Assembly (NCBI GenBank): GCA_021081985.1
Contig: GCA_021081985.1_3639.2
Direction: 5' to 3' (one strand)
Origin: a phage
Length of the DNA stretch: 54,988 bases
Position 1 is the stretch's first letter. The number at the start of each line of letters is the position of its first letter. Below are positions 21,714 to 54,544 of the stretch, piece by piece. The notes below the pieces were generated by a model that saw only the letters and a list, made by a program, of their open reading frames with translations, did not search any database and was not told the DNA's origin. A program made the translations under genes and the position numbers.

Positions 21714-22131
21714 ATTAAAAGTTTTCGACATGTTAGTGGATATTCACTTTCTATCTTTAGGGTGTGCAATAGATATATCATGGAAGAGTTGGAACGGTGG
21801 CAAATTTATTTTTGGATCGCTTAGACAAGATACCACAAAATATTTTGTAAGTTGCACAAGGAAATCTCTTGAAATACAGAAATTTTCTGGGTCTGGTTGG
21901 AAAACATTAATTGACCCCAGCATGACACTTGACCCACAAAATATATCAGAGAGTGAAAAACTCTTGGTAAATATTCTCCCAGGACTCACAGATTTTGAGA
22001 GGGAACTCTACGAAGTGGCTGGGAATGTGGCTAAAATGTGGGCAGATGACCACACACAAGAAACGGATGCAAGGGAGTACGTGAGGAAGTTTCTCCATAG
22101 TCATCTCGATTGGGATACACCAGAAGAGTAA
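21697..22131 (+). CDS. Hypothetical protein
   Basis: 144-aa ORF overlapping the VWA gene end by 17 nt. Confidence 0.4.
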   Translation: MNTQNKLKVFDMLVDIHFLSLGCAIDISWKSWNGGKFIFGSLRQDTTKYFVSCTRKSLEIQKFSGSGWKTLIDPSMTLDPQNISESEKLLVNILPGLTDFERELYEVAGNVAKMWADDHTQETDAREYVRKFLHSHLDWDTPEE

Positions 22132-22239
22132 AATTTAACCACACAGGGAGGCTAACGCACGTAGTCTCCCATATGTCCCCATTTCAGGGACATGGGTATG
22201 TCCCCGTTTTGGGGACACAATACTAACTGATCAAATTAA

Positions 22240-22440
22240 ACTAACTTATAAGATCTATTAAATATAATACTACGTATTATAATACTATGATCTATTTAAT
22301 ATGATCTAATATAATATAAATTATATAATATAATATAATTTAATATAATACTACGTATTATATATAATATATATATATATATATATTATATAAAATTTAT
22401 TTAAAATACATTAAGTCTTGAAGAATGTCAAGACTTGATT
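22240..22440. repeat. A/T-rich low-complexity tract with TATAATA-type repeats and a (TA)n run
   Basis: Repeated TATAATACTACGTATTATA, AATATAATATAAT and ATATATATATATATAT in a non-coding interval. Confidence 0.6.
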
Positions 22441-22625
22441 TTAAATATTTTTGTTGATATGATTCGATTGAGTCGAATCGTATGGTTCGATGATTTCGAA
22501 TCATAGAGTTCATAGTGTTTTGCCTGAAAGCATGAGTCGATGAGACTCTTCAGGCAATACGTGAGTGTGTAAGATGCTCACTGCGCTGATAGCTTGTGAT
22601 CATCTAACCCTCATGAGCCATTCTG

Positions 22626-22678
22626 AGATAAACACACAGAGACAAACCCTACAGGTTTGTCTCTGTGTGTTTATCTCA
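22626..22678. repeat. Perfect 24-bp inverted repeat with 5-nt loop
   Basis: GAGATAAACACACAGAGACAAACC - CTACA - GGTTTGTCTCTGTGTGTTTATCTC; no flanking T-run. Confidence 0.7.
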
Positions 22679-22843
22679 ATCATGGATTCGGGTTGTCACA
22701 AGTCACTATGTGACTCTGTGTGGGGATCTTGAATGTGTACCGGAGCATGGCGCACAGGACTGGTTCATCTGTCCGTCTCAACTGGGGCGCGGTGGGTGTC
22801 AAGGTTTAGTTTTACGTTTTGTGTGGGTGTGGAGGAGAGTCTT

Positions 22844-23155
22844 ATGGCCTACGATGAAAATTCTATCCGTGTGCTGTCACCTGATGATATCAAACAGCGA
22901 TTTGACTGGGTACGCATCGGGGATTTGGTTCACGAATATAACTTACCTGTGGATTGGGTCAGACGTGGCTTTGAAGCGTGCTGGAGGTTAGGCATCGAGC
23001 CTGATTATTTTATCAACAAGTACATCCTCAAGCATGGTGTTGATCCTGTACCTGATTTCGAGGCTGTTTTTAAAGAGATTATTATGGAATCTCGATTCAG
23101 GGATCAGGTATGCACTCGGCAGTCTCAAAAACGCATCTGCGAATCAGATTTGTAA
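22844..23155 (+). CDS. Hypothetical protein (start trimmed to ATG after GGAGGAGAG)
   Basis: The ORF-track start at 22733 lies inside the structured intergenic region; the ATG at 22844 has a strong RBS. Confidence 0.4.
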   Translation: MAYDENSIRVLSPDDIKQRFDWVRIGDLVHEYNLPVDWVRRGFEACWRLGIEPDYFINKYILKHGVDPVPDFEAVFKEIIMESRFRDQVCTRQSQKRICESDL

Positions 23156-25745: not shown

Positions 25746-26010
25746 TATGATATTTTATCGCTGATATTTGTTTTCCCTGTGATATTTTGTCACAGGGAGA
25801 AGTTTCAACAACAGATATTTTCTTGATACTTTAAAATTCTACCAGAATTTTAAATTCTGTAAATTTAGAAAACTATTACTTATAAGCGTTTCGACACAAT
25901 TTTGTTATGAAAGCCTTGTTTTTATATAAAAACCTGTTTTAGCATGAGTGGTAGGATCACACTCCATACTACCTTTATTCCTACAGATGAGCACCTCCAT
26001 GTCCGAAAAC

Positions 26011-26200
26011 TCGGTTCTCGATCGAAAATTCATTTTCTAAATCGTATTTGCTCCTTACGGAGAAAATTTTTTAGGGCTACAAATTTCAGTTCTCGATCGG
26101 TTTTTCGATTTCAAAATCGTATTTGTTTTTTCTTGCGAAATTTTTCGCACGCTCAGTTCTCGATCGAGTTTTCAAAATCGAAATCGTATTTGCTCTATAG
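26011..26200. repeat. Three imperfect direct repeats (GTTCTCGATCG ... AAATCGTATTTG), 67-75 bp period, with flanking A/T palindromes
   Basis: GTTCTCGATCG at 26014, 26089 and 26156; AAATCGTATTTG at 26039, 26114 and 26181. Confidence 0.6.
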
Positions 26201-26601
26201 CGCGAAAAAATTTTTATGGGTATCATAATTCTATCACACACTTAAACGCAAAGCAACATAAAAATTTTTGTTGAATGATAATCATTCTCATTTGCAGAAT
26301 GACAGGTAGGATTGGTGTCTTATCCTCCCCCGTTGACCATCGTCGCCGTAGTTTGAAGTTTATAGCCGTTCTCGGCTTATCTCTTTGTTAGATAGAGATT
26401 AACATAGTTGCCAAAGGAATCAAGCGTTAATTGTAATCTTTACGTTTCTTTACAAATTTATTTTGGACGAGTTACCGGCGATCGACCTTACAACCAGCGC
26501 CATGGTATGTTAGCCCCGCCTTTACGCCGTGGGGATGGCGTTTCCTCTTTTGTATGTTAGTCATAATAAGCCCAATCCCTGGGCTTGTCAAACATTTTTA
26601 T

Positions 26602-26865
26602 CTATTTATTTTCTTGCCAGGTTAGGACACCTAACCAGAAATGGCAATCACCTTTCGCCCATTGTGGTATATTGCTTTCTTTCCCACCTTCTCGCGCCCA
26701 GGAATAACCGCCCGTGTAACTTTGCAATTGATAACTATCCTCGACCTTATAATCTGACAGGTTGAGAACTGTTTCTACCTTTAAGCCCGTTGCGCTCGCT
26801 ACCTGGTGGATAGTTCCCCCTTGCCAGCCTAACGCGTACATAAGGTGCATTGTGGTAGTGGTCAT
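26602..26865 (-). CDS. Hypothetical protein, divergent from the early cluster
   Basis: 87-aa ORF; GAGGAA upstream of ATG on the minus strand. Confidence 0.35.
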   Translation of the reverse strand: MTTTTMHLMYALGWQGGTIHQVASATGLKVETVLNLSDYKVEDSYQLQSYTGGYSWAREGGKESNIPQWAKGDCHFWLGVLTWQENK

Positions 26866-26950
26866 TTTTCCTATTCCTCTGTTAGTTGGTTAGTTGTTAA
26901 AATTGTATCTATAATCAGCCAGGTTTGCAAGGCAAATAAAAGAGAAAAAT

Positions 26951-26996
26951 TTTTTAAAAATAGTATTGACAGCGGGGGGTAGTATAGATCTACTAT
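26951..26996 (+). promoter_or_regulatory. Putative sigma70-type early promoter with A/T-rich upstream element
   Basis: AAAAATAGTATTGACA with TTGACA at 26966-26971; the -10 is ambiguous (TATAGAT or TACTAT). The same AAAAATAGTATTGACA element recurs at 32021-32037. Confidence 0.4.
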
Positions 26997-27050
26997 GTGC
27001 ACATCAAGGCGATACACCGCCACCAACCAACCTAAAAGGGGTAAATTAAT

Positions 27051-28041: not shown

Positions 28042-28398
28042 ATGGCAATCCAGGCAATCCTGTTAGAACTTACAGACTTCCGTAATACTGTAAAAAATTT
28101 AACCAAAAAACAGGTTGATAATATTATCAACGGATACCGTAGCAAGATTAAAGATCTTCCGCTTAAACGCGATCAACATGCGGCTAATATGATGCTTGAC
28201 GCTATGATCAAAAAGATGATTCAGTGCGATCTTACTCTGGCTTATGAATACGCTGGCGATCTCTTTGTAACGTATAATAAGCCAGTGCCAGGCATGTGCA
28301 CCACGGAAGAATTGCACGCCCTGAATCTAAAACAAGATGCATGGGATAATATGCGCCGCGTTATGGTGTGGGCAGAAAGCGGTAAAATTTATCAATAA
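28042..28398 (+). CDS. Hypothetical protein
   Basis: 118 aa; RBS GAGAGGTAAATAAAAAA before ATG. Confidence 0.45.
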   Translation: MAIQAILLELTDFRNTVKNLTKKQVDNIINGYRSKIKDLPLKRDQHAANMMLDAMIKKMIQCDLTLAYEYAGDLFVTYNKPVPGMCTTEELHALNLKQDAWDNMRRVMVWAESGKIYQ

Positions 28399-28404
28399 AG
28401 ATAG

Positions 28405-28442
28405 TTGTCTTTTAGTTATGCCGTGGTAGAATACACGGCATA
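28405..28442 (+). promoter_or_regulatory. Promoter TTGTCT-16-TAGAAT with a 9-bp inverted repeat (TATGCCGTG / CACGGCATA) bracketing the -10
   Basis: Arms at 28417-28425 and 28434-28442; near-identical copy at 32649-32686. Confidence 0.5.
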
Positions 28443-28474
28443 GATAAGAGAAACTACTTATCAGAGTTTAAAAG

Positions 28475-31697: not shown

Positions 31698-32031
31698 ATC
31701 GAGATCCGCACGATAACCAATATCGACAATTCAAGCCGTTTAATTTATAAATCTCATTCGATAGCTTACAGCTTGGAAACATCAACAAGCTGCATACAAC
31801 AAGGTGAGAGCTTGCCCATTCTAAATAGTGCCGATGTATTTGGCGCGGTTGTTGCAATTGTAAATGATGTTTTTTCTCGTTGATTGGTGTTAATATTATG
31901 TTAGAGAATATCGTGTTTTGGTGTGGTGTCGTTATCGCTGTTATGGTTGGCATCCTGGCGACGATGGCGAACATTGTGATCTCAAACAACCTGGCAGGGT
32001 AAAAATTTTTTAAAAATAGTATTGACATACT

Positions 32032-32417: not shown

Positions 32418-32642
32418 ATGGATAAATTAACAAAGATTGAACATGAAGTTATGGATCTTGCACGGGCTAATAAGCCATTTGACAAGATTTACTCTAAGGA
32501 GAATAAAGAGATCTTGAAAGATCTAACGCAAGGCCAAAAAGACGGCTTGCGCCGCTTATATCGTGAGGCGTATGACTATTTTCGCTGGTGGGAAATAGAA
32601 GAGGCTAACGCGAAAATAGAAGGCTTAGAAAATTTAGTATAA
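32418..32642 (+). CDS. Hypothetical small protein
   Basis: 74 aa; RBS CAGAAGGTATAAAA before ATG. Confidence 0.4.
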   Translation: MDKLTKIEHEVMDLARANKPFDKIYSKENKEILKDLTQGQKDGLRRLYREAYDYFRWWEIEEANAKIEGLENLV

Positions 32643-32648
32643 AAGTAG

Positions 32649-32686
32649 TTGACTTTTAGTTATGCCGTGATAGAATGCACGGCATA
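32649..32686 (+). promoter_or_regulatory. Promoter TTGACT-16-TAGAAT with the same 9-bp inverted repeat (TATGCCGTG / CACGGCATA) as at 28405-28442
   Basis: The two copies share about 40 nt including both palindrome arms. Confidence 0.5.
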
Positions 32687-32737
32687 GATAAGAGAGACGG
32701 CATAAGCCATTAATTAAACTTAAAGAGGTGAATTATC

Positions 32738-35429: not shown

Positions 35430-35720
35430 TTAACAATTTTGCAAAGAAGCCTGCTTTGCAGGTTAAGCGCAATGCGCTTAATCGCGTAGCGACTATGTGA
35501 AATTATAACAGTTAAATTATTAATAAAATCTTGCAAAATTGTTAACCTCCTGCGTTATTGTGTCCATGAATGGATGAGGAATAATATTCCTCCCAGCTAC
35601 CGCTGCAAAATTGTGTCCTGTACGGATTAGTTACGTATGTAACTAACAACTAACGTTGCAAAATTGTGTCACGTAGTGATTAGCTGAGAATCAGCTAACC
35701 CGTAAAACGGGCTAAATTAT
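35430..35720. repeat. Cluster of TTGCAAAATTGT-type repeats, each followed by a short palindrome
   Basis: TTGCAAAG/TTGCAAAATTGT occurs near 35444, 35531, 35609 and 35661; palindromes include GTTACGTATGTAAC, TAGCTGAGAATCAGCTA and AAGCGCAATGCGCTT. Confidence 0.5.
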
Positions 35721-37482
35721 TCCCATTAATCCCCCGATTATTACGCAGTAAATCACTTGCTTATTACGTTTAATTAGCCTGTTAAACAGGCTAGTAATGT
35801 GATGACCATTAACCACGATTATTGTTTGGATTATCCAGCCTAAACCGCTTATCATGCTGTTAAATTCTGTTAAGTGCCTGAAATGCCAGATCAATTTGGT
35901 CACTGCGTGATTATGATTGCGACAATAATTTGCTTATGATTGTTTATGTGCTGTTTATAATTGCTTATGTTTTGTTATAGTTTGCTATTTATTTGTTATG
36001 TTTTGTTTGTGATTTGTTAAACACCCTTTTATCTTTCCTCTTACATTTTCGTTATATTTGATTTGTTATCGTTTTCCCTCATTTCGCTTCGTTATTGAAA
36101 ACAAGAATTATTATCATTGATACGCCTTAACAGGCTGGCAGGTCTGTTAGTGGTCTGGTTCTCTGTGTGGTCATGTGATGGTTGGTTGTAGTAGCCTGGT
36201 TTTATGGTCTGGCCTGTTATTGTTAGCTTGCTTATTGTTGTGTGGTGTATGTATCAGTTAGCTAGTGCATTAGCTGGTGCGCATAACGTGTATTATGTTA
36301 AATCACTAAGCCCACAAATAAGGTGGCTTGTCAATAACAATAAGTGCTGTGTGCGGTAGTCTGGCCCATCAGTGTGCCCTTTTGTTGTGTGGTGTCCGAT
36401 GACAAGGCGGGACTATCCACCCGACATCGTGAAAACTCGATGGATTCTCGATCACAATAGCTGTAAGATATTTTGTAAAGATTCGTAGTTTTTCTTGACA
36501 CCCACAATCATCCGTCTAACCCTTCAGAGATAAATACATGACAAATTCGCACAAATTCACCACCTGCCGTGCCACGTCACTAATCTCGCAAGGATATTTC
36601 TGGAAGTGAACCTGCACGCAATGCAGCACGCGTCTTGTTGTGTGGGGAGGGTGGGGTAACAATCAGGAAGTGGTGTGGCTGTGATAACGTATTGGATAAA
36701 AACTCTGGCTGGCTTGTCGATGATATTTGTGTGGGGAAATGCTGATGGGTAAGAGATAAGACACTTGTCTCCGGCAGGGGTGGGGTGTGGAAAAGAAATG
36801 GGTCGGACAGACCCATTGTGATATAGAAATGAAATGGCCATCTCACCATTGACCAGGTAAGCCAATATCAAGGCCAAATTCGTGGCACTCATCCCAGTCA
36901 AGACTTTGATTCCAGTTTGTAACTGTCCTCTCTGTGTGGTGGGTGTATGATGCTCTCTGTGACTGCTTTGGCATCTTTTTTGTCTGAGATTTCCCGAAAA
37001 GAGGTGTGTTGTCATTGAGTCTTCCGGCAGCCTTTTCACCCTTTTTGACTTGTCTCCCACGGGCATTCCACTGCTCCAGTGTCCTGTAACACATAAAATC
37101 ATTCTCCTGTAATATCTGGTGTGGGGAATGGTAGTGGAGAATATCAACCGTGTCAAGTAGGTTTGCTTAGAGGCGTTATTATAAAAATTTTTTGGTGGGC
37201 TTTCTGGGGCTGGCTGTCGGGCTGTAAACAAGCTGTGAAGCCAGATGTGACGGGGCTTTCAGCTATGTTGTGTGTTGATCGCAAATAAGGATAAAATAAT
37301 CAATATAAATGCAGATAAATGTTGTTTTATTGAGTTTGTGTAATAGGTGTGTCATGTCTTGATAGGTTATGACCTGTACATATTTTGTACAATTGTGTGG
37401 TGTGCAGAGTTTGGGTGGCAATTCCCCAGACGGGGCAGGGTAGGTTATGGTGGAGAGCAGGGGCATGGTTAGCCCCATATGA

Positions 37483-54019: not shown

Positions 54020-54238
54020 CGCACCATTACGTGCTGCTGCATGTCACCATGCAGATCAGACCATATCTTCATGCTTAAAGCATGTCTGCCGTTTGGGGTG
54101 TCATCAGCTTACACTCTACATCCTTACATTCATCAGGATTGGTCGTTAGGCATTTACGGTTGATACCGATTTAGCACGGGATTCCCTCCATAGAGGATTC
54201 CCCCGTTTAGGCAGATTTTACATGAGCAGTTATAGTTT
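54020..54238 (-). other. Group I intron (ORF-less, about 220 nt) within nrdD; boundaries approximate
   Basis: Minus strand CUAAACGGGGGAAUCCUCUAUGGAGGGAAUCCCGUGCUAAAUCGG closely resembles the T4 td intron core as recalled; R-like AACGACCA and S-like GAUAUGGUC show a compensatory P7 change (GACCA/UGGUC); GNRA hairpin CUGCAUG-GUGA-CAUGCAG near the 3' end; P1 candidate exon CAUGGGU with guide GCUCAUG. Confidence 0.7.
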
Positions 54239-54544
54239 ACCCATGCTTGTAACACGCCCGTCTGAAGAACCTGTTACCTTTTTATTCAACGGTACAGATA
54301 TGAAATCTGGATAAATCCTTTCAACACAACACTCCATGGCTAATTGCTTTAAGTCGTAGTTTGGATCGCCAGGCTTCATGTTTACACCATCTTCCAAGAA
54401 GAAGATAACTTTTGGAAAAACAGGTGTGACTTTATCTTTGCCAAGTCCGTTTTTGTGAACAAGAAAATAATTCTTTGTAATCATTCTCCCAAAATAGGAA
54501 GTATCAAGCCCAAGGCTCAAGGTGATAAATGGGCATTGCATTGC
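54239..54544 (-). CDS. nrdD: NrdD internal exon; boundaries approximate
   Basis: ORF 54230..54541 (MQCPFITLSLGLDTS ... RVTSMG); the in-frame stop lies just inside the following intron. Confidence 0.55.

Follow-up and report, generated by a model that had tools for sequence, protein, structure and literature searches.

A duplicated inverted intergenic repeat with origin-like and promoter-leader features in Avunavirus phages

The DNA analyzed here, a stretch of 54,988 nucleotides referred to as the window, belongs to an rV5-like Escherichia coli phage of the genus Avunavirus (Vequintavirinae). It carries one copy of a 565-bp non-coding element, named R, which is present in two inverted copies per genome. 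The reading that we prefer, and hold with roughly even confidence on the basis of sequence comparisons, is that R is a duplicated composite cis-acting module, in which an origin-like element is combined with a promoter and a structured leader, and which bounds the early/middle gene block. R is a good candidate for the replication origin of the rV5-like phage group.

Escherichia phage Av-05 and the marmot isolates TH18/18-1-2, 24-2-1, and 19-1-2 share about 95 % identity with the window. The phage is lytic and has a genome of 134–138 kb. The gene blocks are designated A, B, Z, and W, labels set in this analysis, and the second repeat copy is R'. The order of blocks in the Avunavirus genome is A–R–[B> <Z]–R'–W. 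The gap between blocks A and B, described previously as a long structured non-coding region between two plus-strand genes, is indeed present at 22132–22843. The upstream gene, encoding a 144-aa protein, stops at 22131, and the downstream gene starts with an ATG at 22844 preceded by the Shine-Dalgarno sequence GGAGGAG (22831–22837). The features of the gap and its surroundings are the following:

up to 22131, + strand: block A, with genes for an Srd-like/HNH protein, a VWA/DUF2201 protein, and the 144-aa protein
22132–22165, + strand: spacer specific to the A junction, missing from the W-side copy in alignments
22146–22170: hairpin GGGAGGCTA...TAGTCTCCC, overlapping the first bases of R
22166–22730: repeat R (565 bp), which occurs twice per genome in inverted orientation
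22173–22193 and 22198–22217: two palindromic sites ATGTCCCC-N-GGGACAT, 25 nt apart
22217–22249: core ACAATACTAACTGATCAAATTAAACTAACTTAT, 33 nt, with two ACTAACT repeats 18 nt apart
22220–22412: A/T tract, 10 % GC, candidate DNA-unwinding element
22403–22431, - strand: predicted leftward sigma-70 promoter TTGACA-17-TATTTT, predicted start near 22396
22413–22436: hairpin AAGTCTTGA-AGAATG-TCAAGACTT, bearing the -35 boxes of the two back-to-back promoters
22435–22463, + strand: predicted rightward sigma-70 promoter TTGATT-17-TGaTATGAT, start near 22470
22460–22715, + strand: structured leader of about 260 nt, Avunavirus-specific, with nested GATTCGA palindromes at 22460–22503
22520–22557, 22561–22581, 22624–22678 (25 bp), and 22701–22715: leader hairpins
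22731–22843, + strand: B-specific part of the leader, 113 nt to the Shine-Dalgarno sequence and ATG, homologous to the Seunavirus A–B leader
from 22844, + strand: block B, composed of small early genes and numerous sigma-70 promoters
outside the window: block W, with genes for a winged-helix protein, PRPP synthetase, and NAMPT, followed by tRNA, terminase, and structural genes

The structural elements listed in the first-pass annotation are all present, well above chance. The GGGA/TCCC-type hairpins correspond to the hairpin at 22146–22170 and to the 20–21-nt palindromes at 22173–22193 and 22198–22217, the A/T-rich tract with TAATA and (TA)n is 193 nt long, and the palindromes built on GATTCGA/TCGAATC form the nested set at 22460–22503. 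The inverted repeat reported as a perfect 24-bp one is perfect, but its length is 25 bp, with arms at 22624–22648 and 22654–22678 separated by a 5-nt spacer. By chance, about 5e-10 perfect inverted repeats of 25 nt would be expected in 55 kb. Relative to shuffled controls, the folding z-scores of the region 22466–22846 are -8.3 for RNA of the + strand and -8.2 for RNA of the - strand, that of DNA 22132–22470 is -9.6, that of the 25-bp hairpin is -12.7, and the smaller hairpins taken singly reach -4.3 to -4.8. The hairpin at 22146–22170 may stop transcripts that leave R leftward; a terminator scan did not flag it. Searches of the whole window against Rfam 15, on both strands and at gathering score, gave no family match in the gap region, and at E<=10 the gap produced solely sub-threshold miRNA-type noise matches to the long hairpin. 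No tRNA or tmRNA was found. The small open reading frames within R (52–55 aa on the + strand, 40 aa on the - strand) were rejected as genes, as they have no PHROG match and cross the palindrome.

An intergenic repeat in two inverted copies

The first-pass annotation recognized the gap as a structured region, but that positions 22166–22730 are a repeated element escaped it. Copy 1 of R lies between A and B, in the window, and copy 2 between Z and W, which gives the four junction types A–R, W'–R, R–B, and R–Z'. The copies are about 55 kb and about 79 kb apart on the circular map and flank unique segments. Both arrangements are found contiguous in metagenomic assemblies. In ENA scaffold_96 (137,934 bp), Z on the - strand, a full-length R', and W on the + strand follow one another, and this R' (L031 2422–2987) is the reverse complement of window 22730–22166, with 91.4 % identity over 572 nt. 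In ENA scaffold_28 (70 kb), A, R, and B are in a single piece. We regard the presence of two inverted copies as nearly certain.

The positions at which assemblies end delimit the repeat. More than 20 short-read assemblies break within R, and the short-read assemblies of isolates break inside the region in three cases out of three. In TH18, positions 79742–79864 are repeated inverted at 133882–133759, and positions 72–99 at 79447–79420; inverted end matches are also found in the contigs of 24-2-1 and 19-1-2. Both ends of contig 1 of 24-2-1 (beside W and beside A) carry the outer 106 nt of R in inverted orientation, and both ends of contig 2 (beside B and beside Z) carry the inner ~107 nt. Among the matches listed (of 23) to metagenome contigs that are 97–100 % identical to the window, all ten contigs with A genes end at 22195–22325, and contigs with the first B gene begin at 22686–22701. 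In Logan assemblies with k=31, the A-side contig that is shortest stops at 22195, and no B-side contig starts later than 22701. These limits are exactly 30 nt inside both boundaries of R, which is the de Bruijn signature of a repeat. Because R is repeated, Avunavirus short-read assemblies have contig breaks or mis-joins at two fixed places.

The Av-05 GenBank "complete genome" is chimeric or scrambled (L003 102,828 ff.; L014 41,728/41,763): its sequence after block A has no match in TH18 or in the window, and it jumps from metabolism genes to tail-fibre genes. In the TH18 record, the two 18-1-2 contigs have simply been joined end to end (79,447/79,448), and the joint lacks part of R. Neither record informs on the orientation of the segments, and both "complete genomes" are structurally unreliable. 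Pattern scans of IMG/VR had Av-05 as the sole match, and a scan of GTDB genomes found nothing.

Inverted copies of about 0.57 kb could be substrates of a site-specific invertase of the Mu G or P1 C type, and the repeats of the P1 C segment, at 0.6 kb, are similar in size to R. The Av-05 record has the alternative junction W'–R–B, which is what inversion would produce, but that junction occurs solely in this scrambled record, and Av-05 was rejected as evidence for a second isomer since it is chimeric. The junctions resolved in metagenomes, five of type A–R–B and two of type Z–R'–W, all have one orientation (7/7). Short-read contigs cannot tell orientation. The scanned neighboring genes include no recombinase, and the flanked segments of 55 and 79 kb carry essential genes for replication, nucleotide metabolism, and structural proteins. 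An assembly artefact is excluded by the independence of the assemblers, projects, and samples. We regard the invertase or artefact explanation as extremely improbable.

A packaging site was also proposed for the gap. Assemblies do terminate within R, and the A/T tract, palindromes, and GATC cluster of R recall the pac site of P1. However, the contig ends are accounted for by the repeat, with overhangs of k-1 at either side and junctions of four types. Relatives of the phage in the Vequintavirinae have direct terminal repeats (DTRs), of 459 bp in Gotham and 514 bp in KPP-1 (PMC7471380, PMC9862379). The DTR of KPP-1 (116316–116829) is located where two gene blocks converge, and its motifs align to the zone of B/Z convergence of the window, at 36270–36303 (31/34) and 36467–36487, not to 22.1–22.8 kb. 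The copies of R are inverted and internal rather than repeats of the same orientation at genome ends; R resembles the DTRs of Gotham and KPP-1 in being non-coding, in its size, and in its occurrence in the same subfamily. The proposal is thus not upheld: judged from these sequence comparisons, R is very probably not the packaging site, and pac or terminus function as the explanation of R appears highly improbable. By homology to KPP-1, the terminus or DTR is probably near 36.3 kb of the window.

The non-coding stretch of about 1.1 kb at 35500–36650, where B (+) and Z (-) converge, contains the KPP-1 DTR-like motifs, a cluster of TGTGTGG, and, at 35535–35670, three copies of TGCAAAATTGT. Block B contains a second long non-coding stretch, at 25746–27050, with three direct repeats of about 63 nt (26010–26214) and a strong minus-strand sigma-70 match at 26591–26563. 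A promoter cassette composed of a UP-like A/T run and TTGACA is duplicated at 26945–26971 and 32001–32027 (27/27 identical), and an 81-nt promoter-plus-hairpin unit at 28374–28454 and 32618–32698 (80 % identity). At 54037–54277 on the - strand, a group I intron (Rfam RF00028, 80.9 bits) lies in the anaerobic ribonucleotide reductase gene, which TH18 annotates in three pieces.

Outer half of R and the winged-helix gene

Positions 22166–22310, in the outer half of R (22173–22412), have homologues in three other genera, namely in the intergenic region from which W and Z' diverge: Seunavirus (FENT2, PVP-SE1), Mydovirus (KB57, Ro1), and Henunavirus (Hena1). The match to FENT2 is 76 % over 100 nt (E 5e-12), and the FENT2 intergenic region is matched by 61 phage records. 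The flanking 144-aa protein is merely 36–41 % identical over the same genera. The layout shared across genera starts with TGTCAAC(C)CCT, followed by two palindromes about 24–25 nt apart. In place of the Avunavirus palindrome, the other genera have two to three copies of TTATTCCC-N4-GGGAAT(A); in comparison with ATGTCCCC-N-GGGACAT, both arms have changed together. The core that follows reads ACAATACTAACtnAT..A..TAAACTAACtTAt and is almost invariant in the alignment of Avuna-, Seuna-, Mydo-, and Henunavirus sequences. Next comes an A/T tract with three or four AGATCT-type GATC sites, and the layout ends in back-to-back sigma-70 promoters, the -35 boxes of which form the palindrome TGTCAAG-N-(G)TTGACA. 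The palindromes at 22173–22217 are putative dimer-binding sites, or alternatively RNA or DNA hairpins.

The A/T tract of the window contains four GATC sequences (22229, 22252, 22289, and 22303), within (A/T)GATCTAWT repeats, where about 0.1 would be expected in 193 nt from the composition. The 17-nt palindrome ATAATACTACGTATTAT occurs in the tract twice (22264–22280 and 22345–22361), and a (TA)n run with a period of 2 and 18 copies (TRF) extends over 22359–22392. The length of the tract, including that of (TA)n, differs between strains. Within the window and TH18, the palindrome and the paired ACTAACT are confined to R, and single ACTAACT sequences elsewhere are at chance level; this uniqueness led us to reject both as a general promoter motif. 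R contains no DnaA boxes and no IHF sites. There is no turn of the GC skew at 22 kb, and the skew in this phage group tracks gene orientation.

The first gene of block W (phrog_8453; P0001) adjoins R' at its outer end, as it does the homologous module in all the other genera. Its product is 57–64 % identical across genera. Weak PHROG matches point to a "replication initiation protein" (3e-4) and a "DnaD-like helicase loader" (1e-3), Pfam matches are sub-threshold and belong to helix-turn-helix (HTH) families of regulators, and a sequence-profile search of the PDB gave nothing significant. The best structural matches of the predicted model, which is of medium confidence (pLDDT 74), are plasmid initiators of the RepA_N family. 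According to this model, the protein resembles the origin-binding domain of RepA_N/DnaD-type initiators. The window copy of R has no initiator-like gene alongside.

The Seunavirus A–B junction encodes a paralogue of the winged-helix protein, phrog_8102, which has an HTH_36 domain, is annotated as a replication initiation protein, and is 29 % identical to the first W protein over 68 aa (E 5e-7). The gene is accompanied by a degenerate inverted ACTAACT/GATC module and an A/T tract, as well as by a palindrome pair of its own, which in PVP-SE1 consists of two copies of TGCAAAATTTGCA. Neither the window nor TH18 has a homologue of phrog_8102; the Avunavirus A–B junction has a full copy of R where Seunavirus has the paralogue. 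A lies next to B in Seunavirus and Justusliebigvirus too, and this order is the ancestral one. The A–B position of Justusliebigvirus and Phapecoctavirus is occupied by a 1.5-kb non-coding block that is 97 % conserved in more than 140 records (L012 8367–9895; phage alia 76,769–78,297). Three 63-nt repeats and palindromes resembling Fur boxes (GATAATCATTCTCATT...) lie in this block, which corresponds to R in position but is unrelated to it in sequence.

The annotated starts of the first W gene (L001 3562–3987, Av05_0018) and of the first Z' gene (L015 154–537) look too far upstream. They are doubtful because the alignments with PHROG families and homologues begin at about residue 18–26 (W) and 33 (Z'). 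With the starts corrected, both leaders would become longer, and the TTGACA box beside R would be freed.

The same observations can be read differently: R may be purely transcriptional, with the winged-helix protein an autoregulating repressor that acts on the palindromes, the A/T tract a spacer or promoter-upstream DNA, and the core with the palindromes possibly the RNA leader of a leftward W operon. The palindromes flank the promoter of the winged-helix gene itself, so an autoregulated operator fits equally well, and the commonness of the winged-helix fold among repressors weakens the initiator reading. The back-to-back sigma-70 promoters are kept across genera, the third palindrome of the other genera is downstream of the TTGACA box of the W gene, as an operator would be, the weak Pfam matches of the protein are to regulator families, and the (TA)n length varies between strains, as it would in a spacer. 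However, the best structural matches of the protein are replication initiators, and the PHROG hints agree with them; a genome-unique, invariant 33-nt core accompanied by a GATC cluster is unusual for a simple operator region; and the A–B copy of R has no W gene to control. Overall, we consider the purely transcriptional explanation, in which R has no origin function, unlikely but the strongest of the rivals.

Inner half of R: predicted promoters and structured leader

The inner half of R (22413–22730), for which a promoter with a structured 5' leader is the better explanation, begins with the hairpin 22413–22436, which carries the -35 boxes of both promoters. As it is followed by a T-rich run, the hairpin looks like a terminator too. 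Its homologue in other genera is the palindrome TGTCAAG-N-(G)TTGAC. The predicted rightward promoter is homologous, in position and in sequence, to TTGAC(A/T)-16/17-TAGAAT/TATGAT ahead of Z' in Seuna- and Mydovirus. Transcription from it would run through the leader into block B or, in the other copy, into block Z'. The predicted leftward promoter reads into the A/T tract, core, and palindromes, and in R' toward the winged-helix gene; equivalents with TTGACA-17-GATAAT/CATACT were read by eye in KB57, FENT2, and PVP-SE1. No further promoter matches are found between 22470 and 22844. The sequence features indicate that the rightward promoter and the leader are probably active.

The same R leader precedes the first genes of B and of Z, between which no paralogy was found. 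On the Z' side, R is followed by a copy-specific leader of about 50–150 nt, and the other genera have a short leader. The inner end of R (22700–22730) together with the B leader is homologous to the Seunavirus A–B leader, which indicates that R is a mosaic that was homogenized between the two junctions. In a metagenomic relative (L022, ENA OVXI01000030.1), Z' is preceded by the promoter and leader alone (the equivalent of 22376–22730), so the outer half is dispensable at the Z' copy of this relative, which counts against an origin role. Where the outer half of R would be expected upstream of Z', the last 172 nt of this contig hold the end of another gene (...IIAALALDKFNSKVKVE*) and an intrinsic terminator.

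The hairpin stems of the leader are nearly invariant in six R sequences. The changes fall in the spacers and bulges, but their concentration outside the stems does not reach significance (Fisher p = 0.11) in what is an underpowered comparison. The leader is confined to one genus, and a divergence of about 5 % affords no real covariation test. The long hairpin has five mismatches in Av-05, in TH18/24-2-1, and in four metagenome sequences. In the lineage of the window, five left-arm positions and a single right-arm position make it perfect. Perfected arms of this type are produced by template-switch "quasi-palindrome correction". The predicted energy of the 25-bp stem is -42.5 kcal/mol, and that of the mismatched version of other lineages is -21.1 kcal/mol. 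The stem is of the kind cut by RNase III; transcription through it is predicted, and it may be cleaved.

The strength of the predicted structure (z -8.3), the stems that are almost unchanged in six sequences, the identical leader ahead of two unrelated first genes, and the presence in the Z' copy, between R and the first gene, of a hairpin with a U-rich run behind it would also agree with a stand-alone structured non-coding RNA, or with a put/nut-like processive antitermination or attenuation signal, made from both copies, as the main function of R. However, no Rfam family is matched on either strand, the elements are palindromic, so that both RNA strands and the DNA fold equally well, the restriction of the leader to one genus precludes the test of covariation, and the Z'-side hairpin is not significant (z -1.7). 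An RNA element as the main function of R is therefore improbable in our assessment.

Candidate replication origin and comparison with known systems

The resemblance of the gap to a replication origin, suggested in the first-pass annotation, gains from the conserved, genome-unique palindromes and core, the A/T tract, and the initiator-like neighbor of R', and is plausible but not proven. R provides a candidate A/T-rich unwinding element (22220–22412, 10 % GC; DNA fold z -9.6) and, next to it, unique repeated putative binding sites, the palindromes and ACTAACT, that are found in four genera. Several observations speak against an origin: R lacks DnaA boxes and IHF sites, the GC skew does not turn at the window copy, no initiator-like gene adjoins that copy, and the sequence matches of the winged-helix protein are sub-threshold. 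We assign origin function a probability slightly short of even. If R is an origin, the winged-helix protein would bind the palindromes and/or the core, transcription from the leftward promoter into the A/T tract would aid melting, and the phage primase-helicase would then be loaded. The phage Dam methylase may time firing via the GATC cluster.

The elements of R are of known kinds: phage origins composed of a promoter and an A/T-rich element, modules of an initiator with its sites, and inverted repeats that flank genome segments. The primary origin of T7 and oriF and oriG of T4 consist of a promoter and an A/T-rich unwinding element. Like them, R belongs to a lytic phage, lies in an intergenic gap of the early region, and has a sigma-70-type promoter that reads directly into an easily melted A/T tract; unlike them, it adds palindromes, an invariant core, a GATC cluster, an initiator-like gene (at R'), and a second copy. 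The origin activity of R is predicted. The winged-helix protein is about 15 % identical to the RepA_N initiators (pSK41/pTZ2162; PDB 4pta, 4pt7, and 5kbj), but it has about 120 aa in a single domain and lacks the C-terminal host-interaction domain. R differs from RepA_N replicons in having palindromes and not proven iterons, and in belonging to a 134–138-kb lytic phage rather than to a plasmid.

In herpes simplex virus (HSV), oriS is within the inverted c repeats around the US segment, and the genome isomers are equimolar. Like HSV oriS, the origin-like R is A/T-centered, rich in palindromes, positioned between promoters, and present twice, in inverted repeats that flank a segment. However, R has no homology to HSV, the resolved assemblies have one segment orientation, and the origin function of R is predicted. 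RNase III sites are known from phage early transcripts, such as those of the T7 R1.1 type and in the lambda N leader. The R stem is similar to these hairpins in having at least 20 bp and in its position in a putative early-mRNA leader, and the version of the stem in other lineages has a T7-like internal loop. In contrast to the T7 and lambda sites, cleavage of the R stem is predicted, and the stem is equally a DNA cruciform motif.

A bolder possibility, which we regard as rather doubtful, is that Avunavirus has two identical origins within the 565-bp inverted repeats, served by one RepA_N-like initiator, and that homologous recombination between the repeats flips the central 79-kb block to generate isomers. 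If so, the sister genera would instead have two diverged modules, each with a paralogous initiator, the genome of a lytic coliphage would have an architecture like that of herpesviruses or plastids, and the newly perfect quasi-palindrome would mark active hairpin or template-switch chemistry at R.

Skew analysis in a study of rV5 gave no location of the origin (PMC3606486). The literature searched contains no report of Avunavirus termini, origin, or inverted repeats, nor of the conserved R module with its partner. Phages related to rV5 are widely used for therapy and biocontrol, and R offers a concrete origin candidate for them beside an initiator-like gene. The two inverted copies raise the possibility of genome isomers, and the long hairpin of R is a natural example of a quasi-palindrome turned perfect.
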